From a virus (taxonomy: Duplodnaviria; Heunggongvirae; Uroviricota; Caudoviricetes), in the IMG/VR virus record IMGVR_UViG_2675903313_000009: 64,000 nucleotides of DNA; one strand, 5' to 3'. Below the pieces are notes generated by a model. It was given only the letters and a program-made list of their open reading frames with translations, had not been told where the DNA came from and made no database searches. Position numbers and translations under genes: made by a program. Shown here piece by piece: positions 861 to 17,702 of the stretch (the first letter of the stretch is position 1; every line of letters starts with the position of its first letter).

Positions 861-1529
861 ATGACCAAGATCTTTGTGGTTGGCGGCACAAAGGGCGGGC
901 CTGGCAAATCCACCGTTGCCCAGCAAATTGCCGTTTGCCTGAAAGTCAAAAAGAAGAAGAAGGTTTATATTACCGATATAGATATTCAGCGCACGACAAC
1001 GAGCTGGTGTGAAGACCGTCGACAGAACGAAGACCTTGAGCTGATTCCTTTTGCATACGTTCAGGATGACATCATTAAGCACCTAAAATCGCTTCAGGGT
1101 AGAGCTGAGTTTGTAGTGGTAGATGCTGGTGGCTTCGACTCCGAAATTCAGCGACAAGCGATGCTGATGGCTGACGTTATCATTATCCCGCTGCGTCCTA
1201 AGCGTCGTGATTTGAAATCTTTACGTGACATCGATCCTATTATCGACAATGTTCGCAATGTAAACGATAAAGTGAAGGTCCGCGCGGTCATGAACCAGTG
1301 CCCGGCTTTGCCATCACAAGTGTCTCGCATTCTGGCGGCTAAAGAGATTGTTGAGACGTTTGGCATCGAGTCTGCGCCAGTCAATCTATATAACCGCAAC
1401 GTCTATGATGATGCGGAAGAGTCTGGTCGTTCTATCTTTGAAATGACCGGTAGCGAGCGCGACAAAAAGGCGGAAGCCGAGTTTGAAGAATTTGTAGATT
1501 ATCTGTTGAGTCTGGAGGAAGAAGAATAA
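861..1529 (+). CDS. parA: ParA/MinD-like partition ATPase
   Basis: deviant Walker A GGTKGGPGKST near N-terminus; about 220 aa; followed by small RHH-type partner with overlapping stop/start. Confidence 0.8.
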   Translation: MTKIFVVGGTKGGPGKSTVAQQIAVCLKVKKKKKVYITDIDIQRTTTSWCEDRRQNEDLELIPFAYVQDDIIKHLKSLQGRAEFVVVDAGGFDSEIQRQAMLMADVIIIPLRPKRRDLKSLRDIDPIIDNVRNVNDKVKVRAVMNQCPALPSQVSRILAAKEIVETFGIESAPVNLYNRNVYDDAEESGRSIFEMTGSERDKKAEAEFEEFVDYLLSLEEEE

Positions 1530-1888
1530 TGTCCATGAAAATGGGTGACCTAGCAAAGCGCAAAGAGCCTGATGCACCGGCTAAGAACACAACTCCTTTG
1601 CGCCAACCAGTCAGACCACAGGGACGCCCGACTCGTGGCAAAGAGAAAATTAAAAGCCGCACAATGTCACTGGAGGACGAATACTTCGAACTGCTGGAGA
1701 TGATGAAGTTCATCCCTCGCTTCGAGAAGTTCACTCGTTCTGACGTGATTCGTGCTGCTATTTTCCATCTTGCGGAGAAGACACCGCAGGAAATCGAGGA
1801 CATCGTGAAACTTAACGAGGCGATCACAGCTGCCGATGTCACGATGCGTACCGATGAAATCAAACGCGAGTTGATGAAGAAAGGTTAA
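1529..1888 (+). CDS. ribbon-helix-helix (ParG/CopG-like) DNA-binding partner of ParA
   Basis: 119 aa, basic disordered N-terminus then predicted beta-alpha-alpha segment (KSRTMSL...EDEYFELLEMMK...RSDVIRAAIFHL); start overlaps parA stop. Confidence 0.5.
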   Translation: MSMKMGDLAKRKEPDAPAKNTTPLRQPVRPQGRPTRGKEKIKSRTMSLEDEYFELLEMMKFIPRFEKFTRSDVIRAAIFHLAEKTPQEIEDIVKLNEAITAADVTMRTDEIKRELMKKG

Positions 1889-1893
1889 TTTTA

Positions 1894-2652
1894 TTGAGGT
1901 GCTGCTTGGCACCTCTTTCTATAGGTTCCCTAATGCTCTACAAATATATTGGAAGTGAAGATTCGCAAAAAGTGTTACGTAACCTCAAACGGTTTGTAGA
2001 GGACGGCACTATCTCTGCTAGCGCACCTTCTTCATTCAACGACCCATCAGAGTTCAAAGTTTCGATAACGATGGGAGGTACAGAAGTGGAGCACCGGAAA
2101 CACTTTGAAGACAATGGATGTAAGGATTTTTCCTTTGAAGACTGGGATGCTGTAGCTCCTGAAGCTGCAAAATCGTTGGCTGTGGATTTGCGGAAAGAAT
2201 CATTAGGGGCTTTTGGTGTGGTGTGCTTGTCACCAAACGAAGATAACATCTTGATGTGGTCACATTACTCAGTGTCGCATAAAGGTTTCTGCATAGGCTT
2301 TGATGATGATTTTGTTACCTCTATTGAGGGGTATCACAGCTTTGATAATGTGAAATATATACCTTCTGTTCCCGTGTTCGATGAAGTTACAGATGAGTTT
2401 AAGGTACTTTTTGATAAGCTCTTTTTCTACAAGCACGAATGCTGGAAATATGAGGAAGAACAAAGGGTTATTACTAAAAAAATAGGCGCTCAGGCATTTG
2501 ATAAGAAATATATTAGAGAGATCATTCTTGGACATAACGTTTCTCCTGAAGTAGAAGAATATGCCCGGACACAGCTAGACACGAGCATCGAGGTTTACAA
2601 AATGAGTACACCTGATGATGGTTATCTTCTTGTCAAAGAAAAGCTGAAGTAG
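1894..2652 (+). CDS. hypothetical accessory protein (motifs reminiscent of DUF2971-type proteins; unverified); alternative ATG start at 1933
   Basis: ORF with lower GC than replication genes; motifs NDPSEF and LMWSHYSVSHKGFCIGF; TTG start at 1894 or ATG at 1933. Confidence 0.5.
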   Translation: MRCCLAPLSIGSLMLYKYIGSEDSQKVLRNLKRFVEDGTISASAPSSFNDPSEFKVSITMGGTEVEHRKHFEDNGCKDFSFEDWDAVAPEAAKSLAVDLRKESLGAFGVVCLSPNEDNILMWSHYSVSHKGFCIGFDDDFVTSIEGYHSFDNVKYIPSVPVFDEVTDEFKVLFDKLFFYKHECWKYEEEQRVITKKIGAQAFDKKYIREIILGHNVSPEVEEYARTQLDTSIEVYKMSTPDDGYLLVKEKLK

Positions 2653-2718
2653 CTCCAGACTTTCCTCAAATGATTATGTTGGGCGCTTTTCTTATTGAAC
2701 TGGTTAGTGAGGCTAATA

Positions 2719-3891
2719 ATGGATTTGTTCTCAACCAAAATAGCAAAAAACAAGCTGCACGAATCTTTTAAACAGATTTATCAAGATAATACATATGCTC
2801 CAGTAAGAGAAGTGATACAGTCGTGGGGGCGTGGGTTACTGGAGCGTAGCGGTGAGCAGACTAAATTCGTTAAAGAGTTTCAGACAACCTTCAATTCCGC
2901 CTTATGGGAATTGTATCTGAACGAAATGTTTATTCGTCTCGATTATTCTGTCGACTACACAAAAGACAGTCCCGATTTCTGTGTTACTACACCGTCAGGC
3001 TACCAGTTTAACGTCGAAGCTGTGATATCAGATCGGCCACATAATCCACCTGCAGGTGTTCTTTTTAGCGAATCAAAATTCAAACATCAATCAACGCTAA
3101 AATTAATCGGAAAAATCAAAGACAAACATGATCTTTTTACAGGAGTTAATGGCAAAAAATTCCCGTACTCTACGATGTCTCATGTAGTTAATAAGCCGTT
3201 TGTTCTGGCGCTTGCACCCTTTGACTCCGATTTATCATTGTCTCAAAATAACACAATCATCAATCGAGTGTTGTTTGGCATTGAGGAACCTACCACCAGA
3301 AATTTGGTGACTGGCAGCCAAACTAAAGTTACCTCAATCAAAAAGAATGAAGACGTTGAAATTCCATTAGGTATATTTACTAACGACTCATATAAAGAAA
3401 TAAGTGCGGTTATTTTCTCCACCACCGGCACTTTTGGAAAAGCCGTGGTTCAAAGCGGTATCGGTAGATATGTAAGGTCAACACGATATCGAGCCATTGA
3501 TGTGAATGATTTCATCGCCAATGAAGGGATGAAAAACGAGGGAAAGCACACACAAAGGATAGGACCTGATCATTTCATCACTACATATCGGCATTTTTTA
3601 AATAACGAAGTCACTGGTGCGGATATTGTAGTTTGTCATTCCACTGCTCATGAAGAGACGCACTTTGACGGCCTTCATATTTACTACAATCCTTTTGCGA
3701 CAGTGCCACTGGACAGAAATATTTTCTTCCCCCCAGAGATAACTCATAATTTTTACGATATGGAAAAAGAACAGTCTGTTCAGAATCATCCTGATGGAGC
3801 GCTGGTATCTAGACAGGTTTTTGAACCAACTAGAGCACATTTTAGGTATATCATGAAACATTGGTTTCCAGGCTTTCTAAAAGATGTTTAA
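2719..3891 (+). CDS. hypothetical accessory protein (ORF open from 2695)
   Basis: ATG at 2719 preceded by GAGG 7 nt upstream; AT-rich coding sequence; no recognisable catalytic motif. Confidence 0.5.
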   Translation: MDLFSTKIAKNKLHESFKQIYQDNTYAPVREVIQSWGRGLLERSGEQTKFVKEFQTTFNSALWELYLNEMFIRLDYSVDYTKDSPDFCVTTPSGYQFNVEAVISDRPHNPPAGVLFSESKFKHQSTLKLIGKIKDKHDLFTGVNGKKFPYSTMSHVVNKPFVLALAPFDSDLSLSQNNTIINRVLFGIEEPTTRNLVTGSQTKVTSIKKNEDVEIPLGIFTNDSYKEISAVIFSTTGTFGKAVVQSGIGRYVRSTRYRAIDVNDFIANEGMKNEGKHTQRIGPDHFITTYRHFLNNEVTGADIVVCHSTAHEETHFDGLHIYYNPFATVPLDRNIFFPPEITHNFYDMEKEQSVQNHPDGALVSRQVFEPTRAHFRYIMKHWFPGFLKDV

Positions 3892-3914
3892 GCATCCTGC
3901 TGGTTGAATTTGGA

Positions 3915-3978
3915 ACCTGCTTCTGTATATAAATACTAAGTTACTTATTATTATTTATACGGAAGCAGGTCTTTTTCT
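3915..3978 (+). terminator. long imperfect hairpin plus T-run; copy 1 of a conserved hairpin element
   Basis: arms acctgcttctgtatataaata / tatttatacggaagcaggt followed by ctttttct; a near-identical element occurs at 50318-50383. Confidence 0.5.
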
Positions 3979-4079
3979 ATGCCAACTTCCCAGACACATT
4001 CCCTTCCGTTTCCACTTCCAAAAACTGCCACCAGTCGCTATCATCCGCTCATTGCAATAAGTAAGTAACTACCTATCTG

Positions 4080-4829
4080 GTGAGCCACATGAGCCAAATC
4101 TTTTTTGATACCATTGACAACGACCAGTACGACTTCATGACAGAGTGGAATACCGCTGTTATGGACAAGTGGGTCGCTGAAAACATTGGTTTGTCGCGCT
4201 GCAAAGACGAGGCTGAACTCTTCGAGACGAAGTGGTTTGATTACCGCGATATGCATCCTCTCATGGCCACCTGTCTGTTTACGGAGGCGTACAAACGTCA
4301 GTACTCAAATATCATGCTGACGCACGGTCGCGAACACTTTGAAACAGCTCCGTTCACCACCGGGTTAAAACGCCTGCCTTATCAGGAGTTGTCGACTGCC
4401 AATAAAACGTCGCTATGGAAAGCACGCCAGTTTGCTGATCGCTATTGCTGTTCATACGACTACTTTATCTCCACGGTTCTTTCCGCAGCTGCACGGCGTC
4501 TGTGGGACAAGTTGCCGCGCCCACAGCATTTATGGCAGCCAGAACTGGTTGAGATATTCGAAGAGAAATTATCCAGACGCGCAACAACCCGTCTGGATGA
4601 CTCTCTGGTTAGCTTTAAGCATATGGGAGACATGCAGTTCAACCCGATTCAGGAAAGCTATTTTGAGTGGATTCTGGAGCGTTTGCGCATCATCCCCCGC
4701 AGCAAGCGCATACGCGCAATTTTCTCTGCTATCTGGCTAATGGAAATCGTTCCAGAGCGCCTTATTTCCGCCCACTTTCCAGAAGAACTGGAAGAAGCAC
4801 GGCGGTTTATTGATCCCCTATCTAATTAA
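4080..4829 (+). CDS. hypothetical protein
   Basis: 249-codon ORF on coding strand; alternative ATG at 4089; no recognisable motif. Confidence 0.5.
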   Translation: MSHMSQIFFDTIDNDQYDFMTEWNTAVMDKWVAENIGLSRCKDEAELFETKWFDYRDMHPLMATCLFTEAYKRQYSNIMLTHGREHFETAPFTTGLKRLPYQELSTANKTSLWKARQFADRYCCSYDYFISTVLSAAARRLWDKLPRPQHLWQPELVEIFEEKLSRRATTRLDDSLVSFKHMGDMQFNPIQESYFEWILERLRIIPRSKRIRAIFSAIWLMEIVPERLISAHFPEELEEARRFIDPLSN

Positions 4830-4841
4830 CTAATACTAGAA

Positions 4842-4854
4842 AACAATTTGTTTA
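4842..4854. promoter_or_regulatory. O1 dyad motif (candidate operator) upstream of helicase gene
   Basis: agaaaacaatttgtttaaaa about 20 bp upstream of the ATG at 4873. Confidence 0.45.
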
Positions 4855-4872
4855 AAAAACAAAGGAAAGCAC

Positions 4873-6213
4873 ATGACCGAACTTTGCCATACAGGACGCG
4901 GGCTGTCCGAAGAGTTTGATGAAGATTTCCAGAACAGACTGACGGCATATTTTTGTCGTGATCACGAGTTTCTTACTCGTGCGGGAGATCTGGTTGTGCC
5001 TAGCCAATTTGCCAATGCGGCCAATGCCATATTGGTTAATATGGTTTCGGGCTATTACCGTATGTACAAGAGCGCGCCTTCTTCATCTGCGATTCTGGAT
5101 ATGCTTAAGCGCGCGAAACGCGATAAGACCATCCGTGAGGAACTCTTCCCGGATGTTGTTGCTGCGTTTAAGCGCATCCTTGCAGAAAAATTGTCTGATA
5201 CCACGTACATGGTTGACCAGGTATCCACATTCGCAAAAAGTGTAGCGTTTGATGATGCTCTGATTAAAGCTGCTGAACTGAAAGAGAAGGGCGACTTTCA
5301 GGGGGCGATGGCAATCATGGCCAAGGTTCAGCAGATAGGCTCGAACGAAGCGACCGGAATCTATGACTACTACACCTCCGCAAGTGAGCGATTGAAAGCG
5401 CGTGAATATGAGGCTTCAGAGGAGTATGTGCCAAACAGCATTACAACTGGACTCCCTCTGCTCGATAGGTTGCTGTACCAAAAAGGCTGGGCGAAGCGTG
5501 AAATGGTGCTCTTCATGGGGTTCGCTAAATCCGGCAAATCGACCGCAATGGGTGAGTTTTCCATAAACGCAACGCTTGCTGGCTACAATGTTCTGTATCT
5601 CTCGCTGGAGGTTCACACCACCATTTTATCCGACCGTTTTGATGCAAGATTGTCGGAGACAGAAATGTCCAAGCTGGTGGAACGGCGCGATGAGGTTCAT
5701 CGTAAGTTGGCAGAGTTGGGAGCCACGAAGGGGATTGGTAGTTTGTGGGTGGTTGAGCGTCCGTCAGGAAGTATGTCACCGGCAGATCTGGACCGTATGC
5801 TTAACAGCATGAAAGCCAACGGCATGGTGCCTGACATGGTTGTTGTCGACTACGCAGATTTGATGCGTGCCAGTTATGACCTTCGTGATGATCGCGCCAA
5901 CATTCGTAGTATCTACACCGATTTACGTGCTCTTTATGACAAGCATAACGTTGCTGGGATTACGGCATCGCAGACAAACCGTGAAGGTGGCGCGTCAGAA
6001 GTTGCCACAATGATGCACGCTGCCGACAACATCGAAAAAGTACGTATTGCTGACCTGGTAATAACGATCAACAAAACCGAAGAAGAAGAAGCGAAAGGAG
6101 AGGCTCGTCTCTACTTTGCTGGTTCACGTAACCAGCAGGGAGGGATCAGCATTCGCGTTAAACAAAACCTCGAACAAATGCGCTTCATTGAGCGAATCTT
6201 AGACGTTACCTAA
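4873..6213 (+). CDS. replicative DNA helicase (DnaB/T7 gp4-like RecA-fold)
   Basis: Walker A GFAKSGKST, Walker B MVVVDYADLM, arginine-finger-like TASQTNREG; conserved start context aaggaaagcacATG. Confidence 0.8.
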   Translation: MTELCHTGRGLSEEFDEDFQNRLTAYFCRDHEFLTRAGDLVVPSQFANAANAILVNMVSGYYRMYKSAPSSSAILDMLKRAKRDKTIREELFPDVVAAFKRILAEKLSDTTYMVDQVSTFAKSVAFDDALIKAAELKEKGDFQGAMAIMAKVQQIGSNEATGIYDYYTSASERLKAREYEASEEYVPNSITTGLPLLDRLLYQKGWAKREMVLFMGFAKSGKSTAMGEFSINATLAGYNVLYLSLEVHTTILSDRFDARLSETEMSKLVERRDEVHRKLAELGATKGIGSLWVVERPSGSMSPADLDRMLNSMKANGMVPDMVVVDYADLMRASYDLRDDRANIRSIYTDLRALYDKHNVAGITASQTNREGGASEVATMMHAADNIEKVRIADLVITINKTEEEEAKGEARLYFAGSRNQQGGISIRVKQNLEQMRFIERILDVT

Positions 6214-12543: not shown

Positions 12544-12830
12544 TCAATTTGACTTCTTGGAACTGGTGGTTGGCCACCTATTTCTTAGCGGCCGGAGTCG
12601 CATTCGCCTTTTACGTAGGTCAGTTAGTCGTAAAACTGTTGCTGATTAAATTTGCTAGTCATAAACGTATCGATGATGGTCTGTGGCGTCTTGGCACCCT
12701 GGTGGAAATTCGCTACGGGCAACTTAAGGAGAACGAAACCATTACTATCCAAGCGAAACGATTCACTGCCACCATTACAAGAACACCTAGTCGTAGAGTG
12801 GCCTTGATCAAAAAAGTCACAACCGAATAA
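12540..12830 (+). CDS. small membrane protein
   Basis: 96 aa with N-terminal TM helix; ATGA start/stop overlap with preceding ORF. Confidence 0.45.
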   Translation: MINLTSWNWWLATYFLAAGVAFAFYVGQLVVKLLLIKFASHKRIDDGLWRLGTLVEIRYGQLKENETITIQAKRFTATITRTPSRRVALIKKVTTE

Positions 12831-13220
12831 AAACATATTGATAAGTATTTACTTACTTATCTTTTGTGTATAAGATGACTTTGTTTTCGTTGAGACGCGA
12901 CTGTTTGAACTTAAATACAAGTGCAAACGAAGAAGTCTATCTGGCAGTAGCCTAATAAGCCAAACACCAGCGAGGTCAGTTTCCAGCCTCGTTACCGAAA
13001 TGGGACACACTGAGCGAGTGTGATTGCAGAACGCAGGAGGGAACATTCATGTTCCCTCCGATGAAGTAACAGAATGGGCGGTTGGTATATTTTCAACTCC
13101 ATATGACTCCCGGATTCTTAGCCACTGACCGCCCATCCTGTTACGTCATTTTGTTCAATTATGTCGTTTATACTGGGTTAAAAAGCGGCGACGTAGCCCG
13201 GCTGGTATGGTTAGCCAGCA

Positions 13221-13342
13221 CACAACGTTGAGGCCATTACATTTTTATCAATTCTAAGGTTCTATTCACAGAGATACCGGCGAACGTTGATATGTAACAT
13301 GTTGGGCAAACATTCAATCGGAGTAGTGGCCTCAACGTTGTG
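13221..13342 (+). other. long inverted repeat (16-bp perfect stem, about 90-nt loop) upstream of tRNA cluster
   Basis: cacaacgttgaggcca pairs with tggcctcaacgttgtg; stem sequence resembles the hairpin after tRNA-Ser. Confidence 0.5.
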
Positions 13343-13608
13343 AAGACGGGATTGTTGTGTAGGTTTAACCACTGTTGCCATTGGTGCCTGTTTTCACAAC
13401 AAATGATTCCATACATCACATAGTATAAATTACAAAGTAGGTGCTGTCCTCAGAAACATCATCTACTTAAAGATTTTGCCTTCTACTATTGAGCGAAGTC
13501 GAAAGCGTCTGGCACTAACGAAAAGTGCAAGTAGCGGTGCGTTTCCTGGCAGAAACTAAACCGTCGCGATTGGCACTGTTGAGTAATAAATACTGGCAGT
13601 GCTGAATT

Positions 13609-13683
13609 GATGGTGTAGCTCAGCGGTAGAGCAGTTGGCTGTTAACCAACTGGTCGGTGGTTCGAATCCACCCACCATCGCCA
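13609..13683 (+). tRNA. tRNA-Asn (anticodon GUU)
   Basis: cloverleaf read by eye: acceptor GATGGTG/CACCATC, anticodon loop CTGTTAA, T-loop TTCGAAT, encoded CCA. Confidence 0.85.
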
Positions 13684-13688
13684 ATTTA

Positions 13689-13775
13689 GGGGAGTTAGTC
13701 CGTAGAGGTAGCGGTGTAGACTGTAAATCTACTGTCATGGCGACTCGGGTGGTTCGACTCCATCACTCCCCACCA
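13689..13775 (+). tRNA. tRNA-Tyr (anticodon GUA), class II with long variable arm
   Basis: acceptor GGGGAGT/ACTCCCC, anticodon stem GTAGA/TCTAC with loop CTGTAAA, T-loop TTCGACT, encoded CCA; D-arm not fully resolved. Confidence 0.7.
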
Positions 13776-13779
13776 AATT

Positions 13780-13855
13780 GCCGGTTTAGCTCAGTTGGTA
13801 GAGCAGTCGCTTTGTAAGCGAATGGCCAGCGGTTCAAGTCCGTTAACCGGCACCA
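13780..13855 (+). tRNA. tRNA-Thr (anticodon UGU)
   Basis: acceptor GCCGGTT/AACCGGC, D-arm GCTC-AGTTGGTA-GAGC, anticodon loop TTTGTAA, T-loop TTCAAGT, encoded CCA. Confidence 0.8.
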
Positions 13856-13863
13856 ACACAACA

Positions 13864-13939
13864 GGTAAGAGCATTGGGCGAATCGGCGATACTGACCCAC
13901 AAGGCCGTAAATCGATAGAGTCAGACCAGTGCTCTTACC
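13864..13939 (+). other. inverted-repeat hairpin between tRNA-Thr and tRNA-Ser (14-bp stem)
   Basis: ggtaagagcattgg pairs with ccagtgctcttacc (one G-U), loop about 48 nt. Confidence 0.5.
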
Positions 13940-14045
13940 GTTGTGATGAATGCACAGGCTGATGTGCCGCAACTACAGTAGTGCGCGCTTTGCGGGGCTT
14001 GCTACAACCCTGTGTCGGAGTTCAGTACCGACCATCACAATAGCT

Positions 14046-14132
14046 GGAGAGTAGGGAGCATGGTGCTCAAGCGGTCTTGAAAACCGTTCCATTGTGCAAA
14101 CGATGATGGTTCGATTCCATTACTCTCCGCCA
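14046..14132 (+). tRNA. tRNA-Ser (anticodon UGA), class II
   Basis: acceptor GGAGAGT/ACTCTCC, anticodon stem GCGGT/ACCGT with loop CTTGAAA, long variable arm, T-loop TTCGATT, encoded CCA. Confidence 0.7.
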
Positions 14133-14134
14133 GA

Positions 14135-14212
14135 CACAGCGTTGAGCGGTTTGGCCTTTTAATCAACTCGATTAAGACTCCGCTAACATAAACCAGACCG
14201 CTCAACGCTGTG
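14135..14212 (+). other. inverted-repeat hairpin after tRNA-Ser (16-bp perfect stem)
   Basis: cacagcgttgagcggt pairs with accgctcaacgctgtg, loop 46 nt; stem sequence related to the 13221 hairpin. Confidence 0.5.
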
Positions 14213-14289
14213 ATAGATAATTACGGCAGACGTTCTTAACCATAGCTTGCTAACATCTTAGCAACACTTTTTTCAGCGCAAAATTCAAA

Positions 14290-14309
14290 GGGGCTTCGGC
14301 CCCTTTTTT
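14290..14309. terminator. bidirectional rho-independent terminator
   Basis: ggggc-ttcg-gcccc stem flanked by A-run and T6; sits between the tRNA operon and the convergent minus-strand gene. Confidence 0.8.
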
Positions 14310-14324
14310 GTTGAACAGTGCAAT

Positions 14325-15587
14325 TTACTTTACATAGTCGCCCAGTTTTAATATTTCGCGCTTATATTCTTTAACCATGCTACTGGATTCAGTATAAATT
14401 CGATTTAAAAGATTATCGCTATCTTTATTCTCATTTATCTTAATGAGTGATAATTTAAATTCATAGTCATCAAATGCCACAATCAAATGGTGGCCTGGGA
14501 TTATATCTTCGTCACTCTTGAAGTATATATCTTCAAGTATGTAATCTAGTTGATTAGATTTTCTTTTCTCGATGTAATCTTCAGCCATAGCTATTACATC
14601 ATTCCTGTCATTTAACCTGTTTTTTTCGGAAGGCACATCTTCGTAATGTTGCACGATTGAACAACCAATAAGGCGTGGGATGTAAACGTCAAAATGAGTA
14701 ACTCTATCATTCGCGGTTTTAAGTTGTTCCTCAAAGTAGTTTCTTACATGTAAAGGCAACTTCTCAAAGTAATCATTAATTATAGGAGAACAAGGAGTTT
14801 TATAATTCATAAGAACCGACGGTACGAGCTGTGGGCGTCGAAACATCCAGTCCCTTTTAACGTCCGATGGAACATAATAACTTTTAATGATATTATCAAA
14901 ATAATTTATCATTCGAGATTTGAATATTTTATTGAATCTAAGGTTTATGAATGTATCCAGATAAGGCATATTTGAATAAGCATCATCAAAAAATATTTCA
15001 TCATTGAAAAAATCATATTTATTCAATAAACAACACAGTTTTTCCGAATTAATATGTTCACAATAATCGATTTTTAATCCAAAGATAGCAATGATCAACT
15101 TCATCTGAGGTGGGATTTTAAAAATTAATTGTGATACATACGCTCTTTTTTCCTTGAGACATTCCCCATCAATATAAAATGAACTATCCACATACTCAAA
15201 TATATTAATAATATGCTTCACATACTGTATTACCTCATGCTGTTTTACCAATGGGTAATAGAGTCTATGTAACTCATCGCTGTTTAAATTAATTTTGTGT
15301 TTATCGATAATTTGTTTTGCAAGAAGACATAACGCATCATGTTGATTTAATAAGGAATCAAACCATTGTTTAAATGCACTCTTTCGCATTTCGAACAATG
15401 ATTCAGTTGTTAATTGAAGGGCTGAAAAAGCTGCTTTTGCACTTTTTCTCGCTTCGTAGGCATTCCATGCTGTTGCTATAAAAGCAAATGCTGTAGCCAA
15501 TGTTCCAACAGTTTGACCATTTAAAACAACCCAATCCCAAAAAATAACGGTGAGCAGTAGTATAATAATGAAAATTAAAAAAGGCAT
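14325..15587 (-). CDS. hypothetical membrane-anchored protein, strongly AT-rich accessory gene
   Basis: 420 aa, N-terminal TM helices then large soluble domain; much lower GC than flanking genes; opposite strand. Confidence 0.6.
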   Translation of the reverse strand: MPFLIFIIILLLTVIFWDWVVLNGQTVGTLATAFAFIATAWNAYEARKSAKAAFSALQLTTESLFEMRKSAFKQWFDSLLNQHDALCLLAKQIIDKHKINLNSDELHRLYYPLVKQHEVIQYVKHIINIFEYVDSSFYIDGECLKEKRAYVSQLIFKIPPQMKLIIAIFGLKIDYCEHINSEKLCCLLNKYDFFNDEIFFDDAYSNMPYLDTFINLRFNKIFKSRMINYFDNIIKSYYVPSDVKRDWMFRRPQLVPSVLMNYKTPCSPIINDYFEKLPLHVRNYFEEQLKTANDRVTHFDVYIPRLIGCSIVQHYEDVPSEKNRLNDRNDVIAMAEDYIEKRKSNQLDYILEDIYFKSDEDIIPGHHLIVAFDDYEFKLSLIKINENKDSDNLLNRIYTESSSMVKEYKREILKLGDYVK

Positions 15588-15761
15588 GTATGTATTTCAC
15601 TCTACTAACTATAAATTATTAGGCTAATGTTAACCAAACAATGCCTTAATTAATAGATTGATCGAGGCTTTAATAGCTTTATAATGCAGACTGCAAAGAT
15701 AAGTATGCACATACCTATCTTCTTTGTAAGTAAAGTTGCATATCAATTCTATGAGGTAACA

Positions 15762-16007
15762 ATGACGATCACTATCTACGGACGAGATAACTGCTCATAC
15801 TGCAAACGTGCGGTCGAGCTGGCGAAGCAACTAAAGGGACATGGCTACGGTGATTATGAGTACATCGACATCACCACTGCCGGTATCAACAAGGAAAAAC
15901 TAAGTGAAATTGTTGGTAAACCGGTAGAGACTATCCCCCAGGTGCTGATCGATGGCCAGCCGATTGGCGGATACACAGAACTGGCTGCATACGTCAGCAC
16001 CCTCTGA
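15762..16007 (+). CDS. glutaredoxin/NrdH-like redoxin
   Basis: 81 aa with CSYC active-site motif and C-terminal TIPQVLIDGQPIGG; ORF open from 15684. Confidence 0.75.
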   Translation: MTITIYGRDNCSYCKRAVELAKQLKGHGYGDYEYIDITTAGINKEKLSEIVGKPVETIPQVLIDGQPIGGYTELAAYVSTL

Positions 16008-16012
16008 TTTTA

Positions 16013-16034
16013 ACGGCTCACAGGAGCCGTTTTT
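16013..16034 (+). terminator. rho-independent terminator
   Basis: stem acggctc/gagccgt followed by T5. Confidence 0.65.
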
Positions 16035-16086
16035 ATTCCCACCAAACTCACTCCCATTTCCCTTAAAATTCAAAAAACAACGTCAA

Positions 16087-16119
16087 AATGATTCCATACC
16101 TACTATGTATGGAATCATT
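16087..16119. other. candidate site-specific recombination core site (13-bp inverted arms, 7-bp spacer)
   Basis: AATGATTCCATAC-ctactat-GTATGGAATCATT, perfect arms, 100 bp upstream of the tyrosine recombinase gene. Confidence 0.5.
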
Positions 16120-16217
16120 ACTGAAAATGAGTTACTTTTACTCTTGATCCTATAAGAATCTATGCCTAATATACTGTTTACTTATACAGTGAATCGGCGT
16201 AACTCGGTGATTGTCAT

Positions 16218-17321
16218 ATGAAAAATAGCTTTGACAGAGCACGCGCTGCGGAGAACACCTCAAAAGAGGCGATTGAGTATCTCGAAAGAGCATCTCAAAT
16301 GCAGGCCGTTATGATCTCGCAGGTCAGCAATGACATGAGATTCTCGGACGCATTCATGTTATTCACTCGCTTATCTCTGCTGATAACAAGACGTCGGCCA
16401 GAGATCGCTGTTCATTGTATTTTGATACATGTTTTGCCGCACATTGCCGATGTAAAAGTAAGTGACATTAATAGGTTCATGGTGAACCAACTGGTCAACC
16501 CACTAATACTGGATGGCAAAATTGTTATGGGCCGCCGCGTTTTCTCTCTGATGAAGCAGTTCCTTAGCTGGTGCGCCTTCCAGGGGATGATAGACGTGTC
16601 ACCGTTAAACGATATGTCACTAAACAAAGTTGCCGGTGGCGCAAAGCCCACACCTCGCGAGCGGAAGCTGACCGACGCAGAGGTATGGGTGTTCTGGAAT
16701 ATATGGGACTACTTCAATGTGTGCGCTGGTACAAAATGGGCGGCCAGGCTGTGTCTTGTATCCGCAAGACGACCTGACGAAGTACTGCGGGCTAAAAAAA
16801 GTGAGTTCAATCTTAAGCGTGGGGTTTGGAATCAAGGCAAGAGGAACAAATCTGCCCGTGAGCATTCGCTGCCTTTAAGCACATTAATGCGCACATGTAT
16901 TGAAGAGTTGTTCGAATACGGTAAAGGCAGCCAGTGGCTCGTGCCTTCGAATAAAAAAATCGGGAAAGACCTTCCTATGTCTAAAGTGGCAATAGCCCAG
17001 GCATTACGTCGTATCCTGGAACGACCAGAACTGATGGAGCTTGAGCCATTTACACCCCGAGACTTGCGCCGTACTGCGCGTAGTTACTTCCCAGCATTAG
17101 GCATAAGCCAGGAGGTATCACGCAAAATCATGAACCACAGTCTTGAGGGGATAGATCGAGTCTACGACCGGCACGATTATATGGACGAGATGCGAGACGC
17201 CTTAGAAAGTTTCTCGACGTACATCGCATCAATCGTAGAGCAACCGGATTTAGACGAAATTGACCACAAATTCAAGGGAGATCGTCTATCAACAGAGCTT
17301 ATTCGTGTAAATTTTTCATAG
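16218..17321 (+). CDS. tyrosine recombinase (integrase/resolvase family)
   Basis: catalytic-domain motifs LVSARRPDE, TPRDLRRTARSYF and HSLEGIDRVYDRHDY (R...H-x-x-R...Y). Confidence 0.8.
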   Translation: MKNSFDRARAAENTSKEAIEYLERASQMQAVMISQVSNDMRFSDAFMLFTRLSLLITRRRPEIAVHCILIHVLPHIADVKVSDINRFMVNQLVNPLILDGKIVMGRRVFSLMKQFLSWCAFQGMIDVSPLNDMSLNKVAGGAKPTPRERKLTDAEVWVFWNIWDYFNVCAGTKWAARLCLVSARRPDEVLRAKKSEFNLKRGVWNQGKRNKSAREHSLPLSTLMRTCIEELFEYGKGSQWLVPSNKKIGKDLPMSKVAIAQALRRILERPELMELEPFTPRDLRRTARSYFPALGISQEVSRKIMNHSLEGIDRVYDRHDYMDEMRDALESFSTYIASIVEQPDLDEIDHKFKGDRLSTELIRVNFS

Positions 17322-17702
17322 AGACTTTATGGCCTCAACAACCTTTTGTGATGCGCCTTTCTCTTTACCGAATCGCTCGTTATATGCAGCAAGAACCTGT
17401 TTTTCGTCCTCGTTAAGAGGAGCGGTGCCTTCTTTGTATAAAAATGCTGCGAGTTCAGGTTGGCGTTCTTCCAGCACCATCATCATAAGACGACTTGGCT
17501 CAATACCCAGCGCCAGCGCCAACGGACGAACCTTATCGATAGGCAAAGGAATTTTGCCACTTTTAATTAAAGAAAGGTTGTTGGCATTTTTATAACCAAT
17601 AAGTCTGGCTATTTGGGCCTGACTCATAGGTGAGGATTCAATCAGCCCTGCGATAAAAGCAGCATAGCGACTTTCTATAAATTCAATCTTGTTGTCAGAC
17701 AT
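17316..17702 (-). CDS. XRE-family helix-turn-helix regulator (repressor-like)
   Basis: HTH SQAQIARLIGYKNANNLSLIKSGK; divergent from downstream genes; palindromic operator in its promoter. Confidence 0.6.
   Translation of the reverse strand: MSDNKIEFIESRYAAFIAGLIESSPMSQAQIARLIGYKNANNLSLIKSGKIPLPIDKVRPLALALGIEPSRLMMMVLEERQPELAAFLYKEGTAPLNEDEKQVLAAYNERFGKEKGASQKVVEAIKSL

Follow-up and report, generated by a model that had tools for sequence, protein, structure and literature searches.

Which function is carried by the single AT-rich gene that lies on the minus strand between a tRNA cluster and a glutaredoxin gene in the IMG/VR virus record IMGVR_UViG_2675903313_000009? The gene spans positions 14325-15587 (ATG to TAA) of the 64,000 nucleotides of Caudoviricetes DNA that were analyzed and are called the window below. 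It encodes 420 amino acids (aa), and its product is listed in RefSeq as WP_001116203.1, 'hypothetical protein'. An initial annotation, made from the sequence of the window alone, had reported an open reading frame (ORF) with exactly these coordinates, this strand and this length, and had placed it among abortive-infection or exclusion-type cargo genes, a type that is supported computationally by the presence of AbiGi in the same position of sister elements and by homology to the family PF16872. We consider it probable, on the evidence of profile homology and gene context, that the product is a single-protein, membrane-anchored anti-phage factor (abortive-infection or exclusion) of the AbiC/AbiP (PF16872) superfamily, whose gene belongs to the exchangeable cargo of a defence hotspot in SSU5-like phage-plasmids. 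The most likely role predicted for the gene would be the protection of its host from other phages.

The window corresponds with 99.9-100% identity to plasmid pTW10722_119 (NZ_CP035843.1) of the enterotoxigenic Escherichia coli (ETEC) strain TW10722, in which the ORF has a 100% match. This plasmid is an SSU5/pHCM2-like phage-plasmid, and such elements are about 108-120 kb in size. The nearest phage relatives of the window are the Escherichia phages Cyrano, CMS-2020a and PhiR41_1. Phage-plasmids of the SSU5 type occur frequently in clinical E. coli, Shigella, Salmonella and Klebsiella, but few defence systems are detected in them by standard tools; in a DefenseFinder survey of the SSU5 group, few systems and no AbiC were listed (bioRxiv 10.1101/2025.09.12.675607).

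The exchangeable cassette and its slot

The variable position that holds the gene, here called slot 1, is flanked by conserved backbone on both sides. On the left are four tRNA genes (Asn, Tyr, Thr and Ser; 13609-14132, plus strand; ARAGORN and Rfam), followed by a GC-rich hairpin with a T-run (14287-14310, both strands; terminator scan and folding) that is shared with the relatives. On the right are the glutaredoxin gene grxA (15762-16007, plus strand; annotation of the identical plasmid record), which is a backbone gene between slot 1 and a second slot, and a tyrosine integrase gene (16218-17321, plus strand) as the right backbone flank, in agreement with the glutaredoxin and recombinase genes named as neighbors in the initial annotation. 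When positions 12801-17500 were compared by blastn with relatives that lack the gene, homology ended at 14310-14312, the end of the terminator, and resumed at 15751-15762, the ribosome-binding site and start codon of grxA; the flanks are 97-99% identical. The exchangeable cassette of about 1.44 kb (14311-15750) consists of the ORF and its upstream region and holds a single gene, with no antitoxin-like ORF adjacent to it. With such sharp breakpoints, and with different genes in the slot of near-identical backbones, the proposal that the gene is acquired cargo holds. A two-gene system formed with grxA was ruled out, grxA being part of the backbone.

The occupants of slot 1 were counted in about 176 PLSDB plasmids that carry the grxA and integrase backbone at a coverage of at least 80%. 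The 420-aa gene (protein identity of at least 80%) is present in 37 of these plasmids, and a Gp49-only state, with a co-oriented gene of the Gp49/Sf6-gene-66 family, in 53. A cassette for a 302-aa protein (L009:1844-2752, minus strand, 29% GC) occupies the slot in 24 plasmids, and an AbiGi cassette with a 403-aa partner (L008:1815-3026, minus strand) in 18. AbiGi in slot 1 of the sister element is identified by both PADLOC (E 5.5e-47) and Pfam (E 4.1e-25), and the 302-aa protein and the 403-aa partner of AbiGi, which have no match in Pfam or PADLOC, are candidates for uncharacterized defence genes. All minus-strand cargo of slot 1 is AT-rich, with 29-37% GC.

With its variable occupancy, its fixed breakpoints and AbiGi among its occupants, the slot behaves as a defence hotspot. 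It resembles the P2/P4 defence hotspots of temperate phages and satellites (PMC13586616) in having fixed breakpoints between conserved backbone genes, at which near-identical elements swap mutually exclusive AT-rich cargo that includes known defence genes; unlike these, it is located in an SSU5-like phage-plasmid, between the terminator of a tRNA operon and grxA. The AbiG (AbiGi/AbiGii) cassette of the sister phage-plasmids occupies the exact slot of the ORF cassette on the same strand and is likewise AT-rich (33.6% GC), but it is an unrelated two-gene system (AbiGi and the 403-aa partner) without sequence similarity to the ORF. A literature search found no account of SSU5-like elements with a defence hotspot at this site. 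As the slots before and after grxA act like the P2/P4 hotspots, they offer a cheap search site for new systems, with the 302-aa and 403-aa occupants as immediate candidates.

Of 5426 complete E. coli genomes, 40 have the whole cassette (97-98% identity), in each case on a plasmid of about 110 kb and never on the chromosome. The gene is not core, being present in only about 37 of the close backbones (about 176) and in these 40 genomes, and together with its real anomaly in composition this speaks against a conserved core gene. One copy, flanked as usual by phage-plasmid sequence, is part of a 618-kb contig (617,681 bp; L022, GCA_041522175.1), which could represent an element integrated in a larger replicon or an assembly join. 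Alleles of 30-55% identity were found in the same position and orientation in SSU5-like plasmids of Klebsiella, Enterobacter and other E. coli, and any member of the family in 138 PLSDB plasmids. Because diverged alleles reside in the same slot in Klebsiella and Enterobacter, the family is regarded as an old, diversifying resident of the slot and not as a one-off acquisition.

The base composition had already been described as far more AT-rich than that of the neighboring genes, and the figures confirm this: the ORF has a GC content of 31.7% (GC3 28.7%) vs 45.5% for the window, and it is the lowest-GC stretch of 1263 bp in the 64 kb, with only 0.3% of the sliding windows as low, all of which overlap the ORF. 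Full-length homologues at 88, 82, 55 and about 31% identity (range 30-88%) keep its length and architecture, and the dN/dS ratio of the gene against the allele of Escherichia albertii is 0.32. The 420-aa ORF is a real gene, and purifying selection acts on it. Its dN between the window and the element of E. albertii is 0.0685, vs 0.002-0.007 in the ligase, integrase and CobT-like genes; compared with these backbone genes dN is raised 10-30-fold and dS 3-6-fold, which therefore indicates allele exchange together with fast protein evolution.

The E. albertii allele belongs to plasmids of 62-64 kb (NZ_CP034165.1, 63.8 kb; L006/L025) that carry the gene intact and have no annotated virion genes. 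These plasmids retain the SSU5-like replication module, with ligase, primase, DnaB-like helicase, DnaE, CobT/CobS-like and integrase genes, carry insertion sequence (IS) elements, hdeAB, metG and apbC, and look like phage-plasmids reduced to plain plasmids. As the gene is kept in elements without annotated virion genes, it does not serve the production of virions.

Members of the family also occur in other mobile elements. In Citrobacter, a member is inserted in a P2-like prophage between the genes for tail-fibre assembly and sheath, a position that we take to be the Z/fun moron site of P2; a second slot of this prophage is occupied by a PDC-S35 TIR gene. A Lelliottia member with 39% identity adjoins the PARIS genes AriA/AriB, and another family member shares an integrase island with RelA_SpoT and HEPN-RES genes.

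Relationship to PF16872 and the AbiC/AbiP group

In the PHROGs database the sole match of the protein is phrog_18168 (E 6e-217), a family of unknown function. The connection to PF16872 (putAbiC) is given by profiles. A profile of close homologues reaches PF16872 proteins that bear the PGAP name 'putative phage abortive infection protein', with E-values of 6e-35 to 1e-20. The closest subfamily members (P0018, P0019, P0020 and P0025) have, like the protein itself, no match in Pfam, and the sister subfamilies P0007, P0008 and P0011 give weak PF16872 scores of 18-22 bits at aligned residues. For a comparison free of circularity an alignment restricted to members without any Pfam match (A3) was used as the query in hhalign. 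Against PF16872-positive long forms (A4) it gave a probability of 100% and an E-value of 2.6e-47 over 346 columns, and against short canonical PF16872 proteins (A5) a probability of 95.6% and an E-value of 1.2e-8 over query residues 67-196. By these profile comparisons the homology of the protein to the PF16872 proteins is remote but statistically solid.

The link from PF16872 to AbiC and AbiP is made by short canonical relatives, which match the PADLOC AbiP/AbiC models at E-values of 1e-4 to 1e-6 and all carry PF16872; the AbiC representative of DefenseFinder also contains PF16872 (supplement of PMC13092281). In a review of 2026, AbiC and AbiP were combined in one AbiC/P group with no assignable fold; of the lactococcal proteins, AbiC has two transmembrane (TM) helices and AbiP has a single one. 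RNA and single-stranded DNA are bound by AbiP, which is triggered by a major tail protein, and AbiC reduces capsid protein production (PMC13064643). An E. coli PF16872 protein was scored as 'predicted novel defense gene' by DefensePredictor. The domain Abi_C (PF14355, the AbiJ/HEPN domain), which was met in several papers on 'AbiC', is a different domain and was set aside as irrelevant here.

The closest counterparts of the protein are the Gram-negative long forms of PF16872, which have about 430-460 aa and two TM helices (Citrobacter P0013, Pantoea WP_161569778.1) and share its architecture from end to end: TM1, TM2 with the motif A-T-A-W-x-A-x-E-A-R-K-S-A-K-A-A, an F..F.LLLEQH helix, the putAbiC core and finally a C-terminal half that varies. 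The protein and the long forms are each encoded by an AT-rich single gene of a mobile element. Unlike the long forms, with which it is only 22-27% identical, the protein does not reach the Pfam model and has most of the invariant polar residues of the core replaced, and its allele is restricted to one slot of SSU5-like phage-plasmids. Like the lactococcal AbiC and AbiP it is the product of a single plasmid-borne gene, has an N-terminal anchor and an alpha-helical domain without a fold match that would indicate a function, and shares the putAbiC core with them through transitive profile homology. Unlike AbiC and AbiP it has an additional C-terminal half (about 220 aa) that is hypervariable; further differences are the altered polar residues of the core and the Gram-negative hosts. 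With 420 aa it is also larger than AbiC (about 344 aa) and AbiP (about 248 aa).

The family around the protein is small, since an exhaustive search of 1.84 billion representative proteins with a hidden Markov model (HMM) delivered 284 relatives at an E-value of 1e-3 or better, and since the conserved N-terminal motif was found in species-representative genomes at two loci only, in Lelliottia and Pantoea. A tblastn search of plasmids with a short PF16872 protein gave only Gram-negative and Bacillus matches.

Several results weigh against the assignment to a functional AbiC/P-type factor. Hmmscan against Pfam with E-values up to 10 assigned the protein to no family, and the gathering threshold of PF16872 (22 bits) was not reached; PADLOC, again with E-values up to 10, gave no match either, including the AbiC/AbiP models PDLC02343 and PDLC02351. 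Canonical PF16872 proteins have 23 alignment columns with a conservation of at least 85%, and the protein is identical in 9 of these (T32, F72, L79, L80, Q82, H83, Y122, Y150 and S152). The near-invariant core pattern of PF16872 (Q-H; Y.R.LY..K; K.Y.S..RS; N; Y; E-H) is incomplete in it: two core changes are conservative (R to K124 and K to R148), and the losses are R to I155, S to F156, N to F169, Y to I127, K to E131, Y to L184 and E-H to N195-D196. Several of the lost residues are polar and invariant in the family, so any chemistry that relies on them may be gone. Fold searches with a model from AlphaFold2 (AF2) found nothing similar among solved or viral structures and gave no mechanistic clue. 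No convincing sigma-70 promoter was detected on the minus strand upstream of the ORF, by a promoter scan or by inspection of the upstream sequence by eye, and a tblastn search of 50,697 phage records, including Cyrano, CMS-2020a and PhiR41_1, found the gene in none of them. A literature search delivered no paper on putAbiC, PF16872 or WP_001116203 and no phenotype of a PF16872 member from Gram-negative bacteria. Homology is no guarantee of activity, since an AbiC-like protein of lactococci, 38% identical to AbiC, failed to give resistance when assayed (PMC11381338).

NCBIfam gave no match for the protein as well. With no direct match in Pfam, PADLOC or NCBIfam, the initial annotation was fair in stating that no motifs could be assigned; the profile and structure comparison that it had suggested gave the remote homology to PF16872 on the profile side and no informative match on the fold side. 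Since the gene is missed by all three collections, at least part of the defence content of SSU5-like elements is invisible to current models. Single-gene Abi systems of the AbiC/P type on mobile elements are already known; new here is a divergent long-form variant that is missed by the detectors and has altered core residues and an extra variable domain.

Protein architecture, proposed mode of action and alternatives

The protein begins with the N-terminal membrane anchor that had been predicted for it. TM helix 1 (codons 2-17; 15537-15584, minus strand) is strongly hydrophobic, with a mean Kyte-Doolittle value of 2.35, and is a helix at residues 2-15 in the AF2 model. The second hydrophobic segment at about residues 26-41 is weaker (about 1.4 Kyte-Doolittle, calculated by hand) and rich in small residues. 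TM2 and the juxtamembrane helix (codons 26-70; 15378-15512, minus strand) bear the motif ATAWNAYEARKSAKAA and are the most conserved part of the family. A stretch rich in lysine and arginine follows TM2 (R47, K48 and K51). According to the positive-inside rule a positively charged flank marks the cytoplasmic side, and this cluster therefore places the large domain in the cytoplasm. The core (codons 72-196; 15000-15374, minus strand) is homologous to the PF16872 putAbiC domain and the preceding 'F..F.LLL.QH' helix, and the hypervariable C-terminal half (codons 201-420; 14328-14987, minus strand) comprises a helical subdomain and a small alpha/beta subdomain.

The AF2 model, which was built on an alignment of 15 sequences, has a pLDDT of 82 and a pTM of 0.70. 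It shows helices at residues 2-15, 17-22 and 24-95, the last being one very long helix that includes the segment of codons 26-70, an all-alpha domain at about residues 98-306 and then the small alpha/beta C-terminal subdomain. N-terminal membrane helices followed by a helical soluble domain, as indicated by hydropathy and by the model, are the arrangement of the AbiC/P group.

Mean pairwise identity among the phage-plasmid alleles is 64% at residues 25-70, 46% at residues 116-200 and 21-27% at residues 201-420, and tblastn matches to Enterobacter and some Klebsiella alleles end at about residue 311. The segment from TM2 to the juxtamembrane helix (ATAWNAYEARKSAKAA) is near-invariant across the long forms. 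Conservation in this segment is periodic at 3.5 residues, with 30.5 of 1000 shuffles as strong, and so is the placement of small residues, with 2.5 of 1000 shuffles as strong. From this heptad periodicity of both conservation and small residues we infer a seam for helix-helix packing, i.e., oligomerization. The C-terminal half (201-420) is proposed, from its variability, as a specificity or sensor module.

To our knowledge the AbiC/P family has been without a mechanism since 1992. The natural allelic series at one locus (97%, 88%, 55% and 30% identity), with a conserved N-terminal module and a hypervariable C-terminus, would provide a tractable E. coli model for the mapping of trigger and effector. 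The following mode of action would fit the data. The protein would be made constitutively from the resident plasmid as a single-gene factor and would be anchored in the inner membrane, the large domain facing the cytoplasm. It may oligomerize through the heptad seam of small residues in TM2 and the juxtamembrane helix. The hypervariable C-terminal half might sense a product of the infecting phage, comparable to the triggering of AbiP by a major tail protein. Upon sensing, the conserved N-terminal module of membrane segment, stalk and putAbiC core would halt phage development before the release of progeny, either by acting on nucleic acid or gene expression of the phage or the cell, in the way reported for AbiC and AbiP, or by damaging the membrane. 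The beneficiaries would be the phage-plasmid and its host, shielded from competing phages. In indirect support, Klebsiella pneumoniae cured of an SSU5-like plasmid showed a 10-100-fold increase in the efficiency of plating of phage (PMC8969562), which is an effect of the whole plasmid, p2 (CP085480). Genes of this kind can affect the outcome of phage therapy against strains that carry such plasmids.

A more far-reaching version, to which we give only a limited chance, regards the long forms with 'ATAW.A.EARKSAKAA' from Enterobacterales phage-plasmids as a functionally new offshoot of AbiC/P. In these forms the ancestral polar site of the putAbiC core would have been abandoned in favor of the invariant seam of small residues, an oligomeric stalk of TM2 and juxtamembrane helix would open or disrupt the membrane when a phage protein is bound by the hypervariable C-terminal domain, swaps of alleles would set which phages are excluded, and the slot would be a new hotspot of SSU5-like elements.

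The main rival to an anti-phage factor that acts after entry is superinfection exclusion or competition between elements, in which DNA entry or early establishment would be blocked at the inner membrane without killing of the cell. A membrane-anchored single gene of a resident temperate element without a toxin or antitoxin partner suits such a function, the membrane and juxtamembrane segment is the most conserved part of the protein, the loss of the canonical PF16872 polar residues fits a membrane-centered function, and curing of the SSU5-like plasmid also raised the efficiency of plasmid transformation (PMC8969562). The sole characterized homologues, AbiC and AbiP, however, act after entry on transcription, replication or capsid protein synthesis (PMC13064643), the cytoplasmic domain of about 350 aa with its hypervariable C-terminus resembles an intracellular sensor and not an entry blocker, and there is no similarity to known Sie or Imm families in PHROGs and PADLOC; exclusion is considered unlikely.

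Still less probable is a role in plasmid maintenance or host physiology without any link to phages, be it as a membrane toxin or stress factor, in an addiction-like manner or by a change of the envelope. AT-rich accessory genes of plasmids have many functions, the neighboring second slot contains YafO-type toxin-antitoxin genes in relatives, and the gene is kept in the E. albertii derivatives that have no annotated virion genes. Yet the cassette is a one-gene cassette with no antitoxin-like ORF alongside, relatives reside in prophage defence hotspots and beside PARIS, the homology directs to Abi proteins, and a hypervariable C-terminal half suits an arms race better than housekeeping.

A function in the life cycle of the phage-plasmid itself, such as tethering of replication to the membrane, timing of lysis or signalling in lysogeny and induction, is very improbable. 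The position beside replication-module genes, the integrase and a repressor-like helix-turn-helix (HTH) gene would suit it, as would diverged alleles at the same position across genera. Against it stand the absence of the gene from most close relatives, which have unrelated replacements, and from all phage records, its retention in elements without annotated virion genes, and a composition and divergence that are unlike those of the backbone genes. Size, location among tRNA genes, grxA and integrase, and the same retention speak against a holin or lysis role in particular, and no holin, Sie or Imm family was matched (PHROGs gives phrog_18168 only, and Pfam and PADLOC give nothing).

That the ORF is spurious or decaying in AT-rich spacer DNA, as its extreme AT content, weak Shine-Dalgarno sequence, lack of a clear promoter and fragmented matches in a few plasmids (H68 and H69) might suggest, is hardly conceivable and effectively refuted by homologues that retain full length and architecture down to 30% identity, by the dN/dS of 0.32, by the confident AF2 model (pLDDT 82, pTM 0.70) and by the 284 representative relatives with common conserved motifs among 1.84 billion proteins.

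Neighboring features of the locus

The hairpin between the tRNA-Ser gene and the stop codon of the ORF lies 14 nt from this stop codon and extends over 14287-14306. The sequence after it reads TTTTTTG on the plus strand and TTTGAATTTT on the minus strand. Its folding energies on the two strands are -17.5 and -17.6 kcal/mol (z -2.5 and -2.6). From its sequence the hairpin is classified on the plus strand as a canonical terminator of the tRNA operon, and it is plausible as a less perfect terminator for the ORF, given that the T-run is interrupted on the minus strand. The tRNA genes are on the plus strand and the ORF is on the minus strand, so transcription is convergent. Of the bidirectional terminator proposed earlier at this point, the convergent arrangement and the plus-strand function stand, and the minus-strand function is plausible only.

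On the other side of the ORF, a promoter scan detected the promoter-like site TTGATC-16-TATAAT (15658-15685, plus strand), which agrees with the consensus in 10 of 12 positions, lies inside the cassette and is directed at grxA. As this good sigma-70-like site is part of the cassette, the cargo seems to supply the promoter of the backbone gene grxA. In relatives of the Gp49 type, grxA directly follows Gp49 on the same strand with overlapping or abutting coding sequences, and the two may be co-transcribed.

The second variable slot, between grxA and the integrase gene (16008-16085), holds only a terminator (16012-16031) in the window. In relatives it is occupied by a YafO-family toxin with a 202-aa partner, a 307-aa protein of unknown function or a 184-aa protein of unknown function (L009:3172-4336, L008:4391-5668, L001:4652-5530, L011 and L013). 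The gene neighborhood further includes genes of the replication module (ligase, primase/helicase and DNA polymerase III alpha) and a repressor-like HTH gene.

An Rfam scan of positions 12800-16300 detected tRNAs only. The tRNA-Ser(tga) barely passes the Rfam threshold for tRNA-Sec (47.3 vs 47 bits), probably due to its long variable arm. The tRNA sets vary among close relatives, with Asn-Tyr-Thr-Ser in the window and Asn-Thr-Ser in phage Cyrano (L001:3611-3858). About 750 bp upstream of the tRNA cluster (12850-13600) are without a convincing ORF and are conserved among the relatives, with 98-99% identity to Cyrano; they may serve as promoter or leader of the tRNA operon or as a regulatory region. 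In phage PhiR41_1 (PV340561.1, L004) the region upstream of the integrase gene is replaced at positions 905-5599 by fimbrial genes, with a PapC-type usher (Pfam E 2.9e-136) and a regulator of the AraC family, so the same neighborhood can also carry cargo of the adhesin or virulence type.

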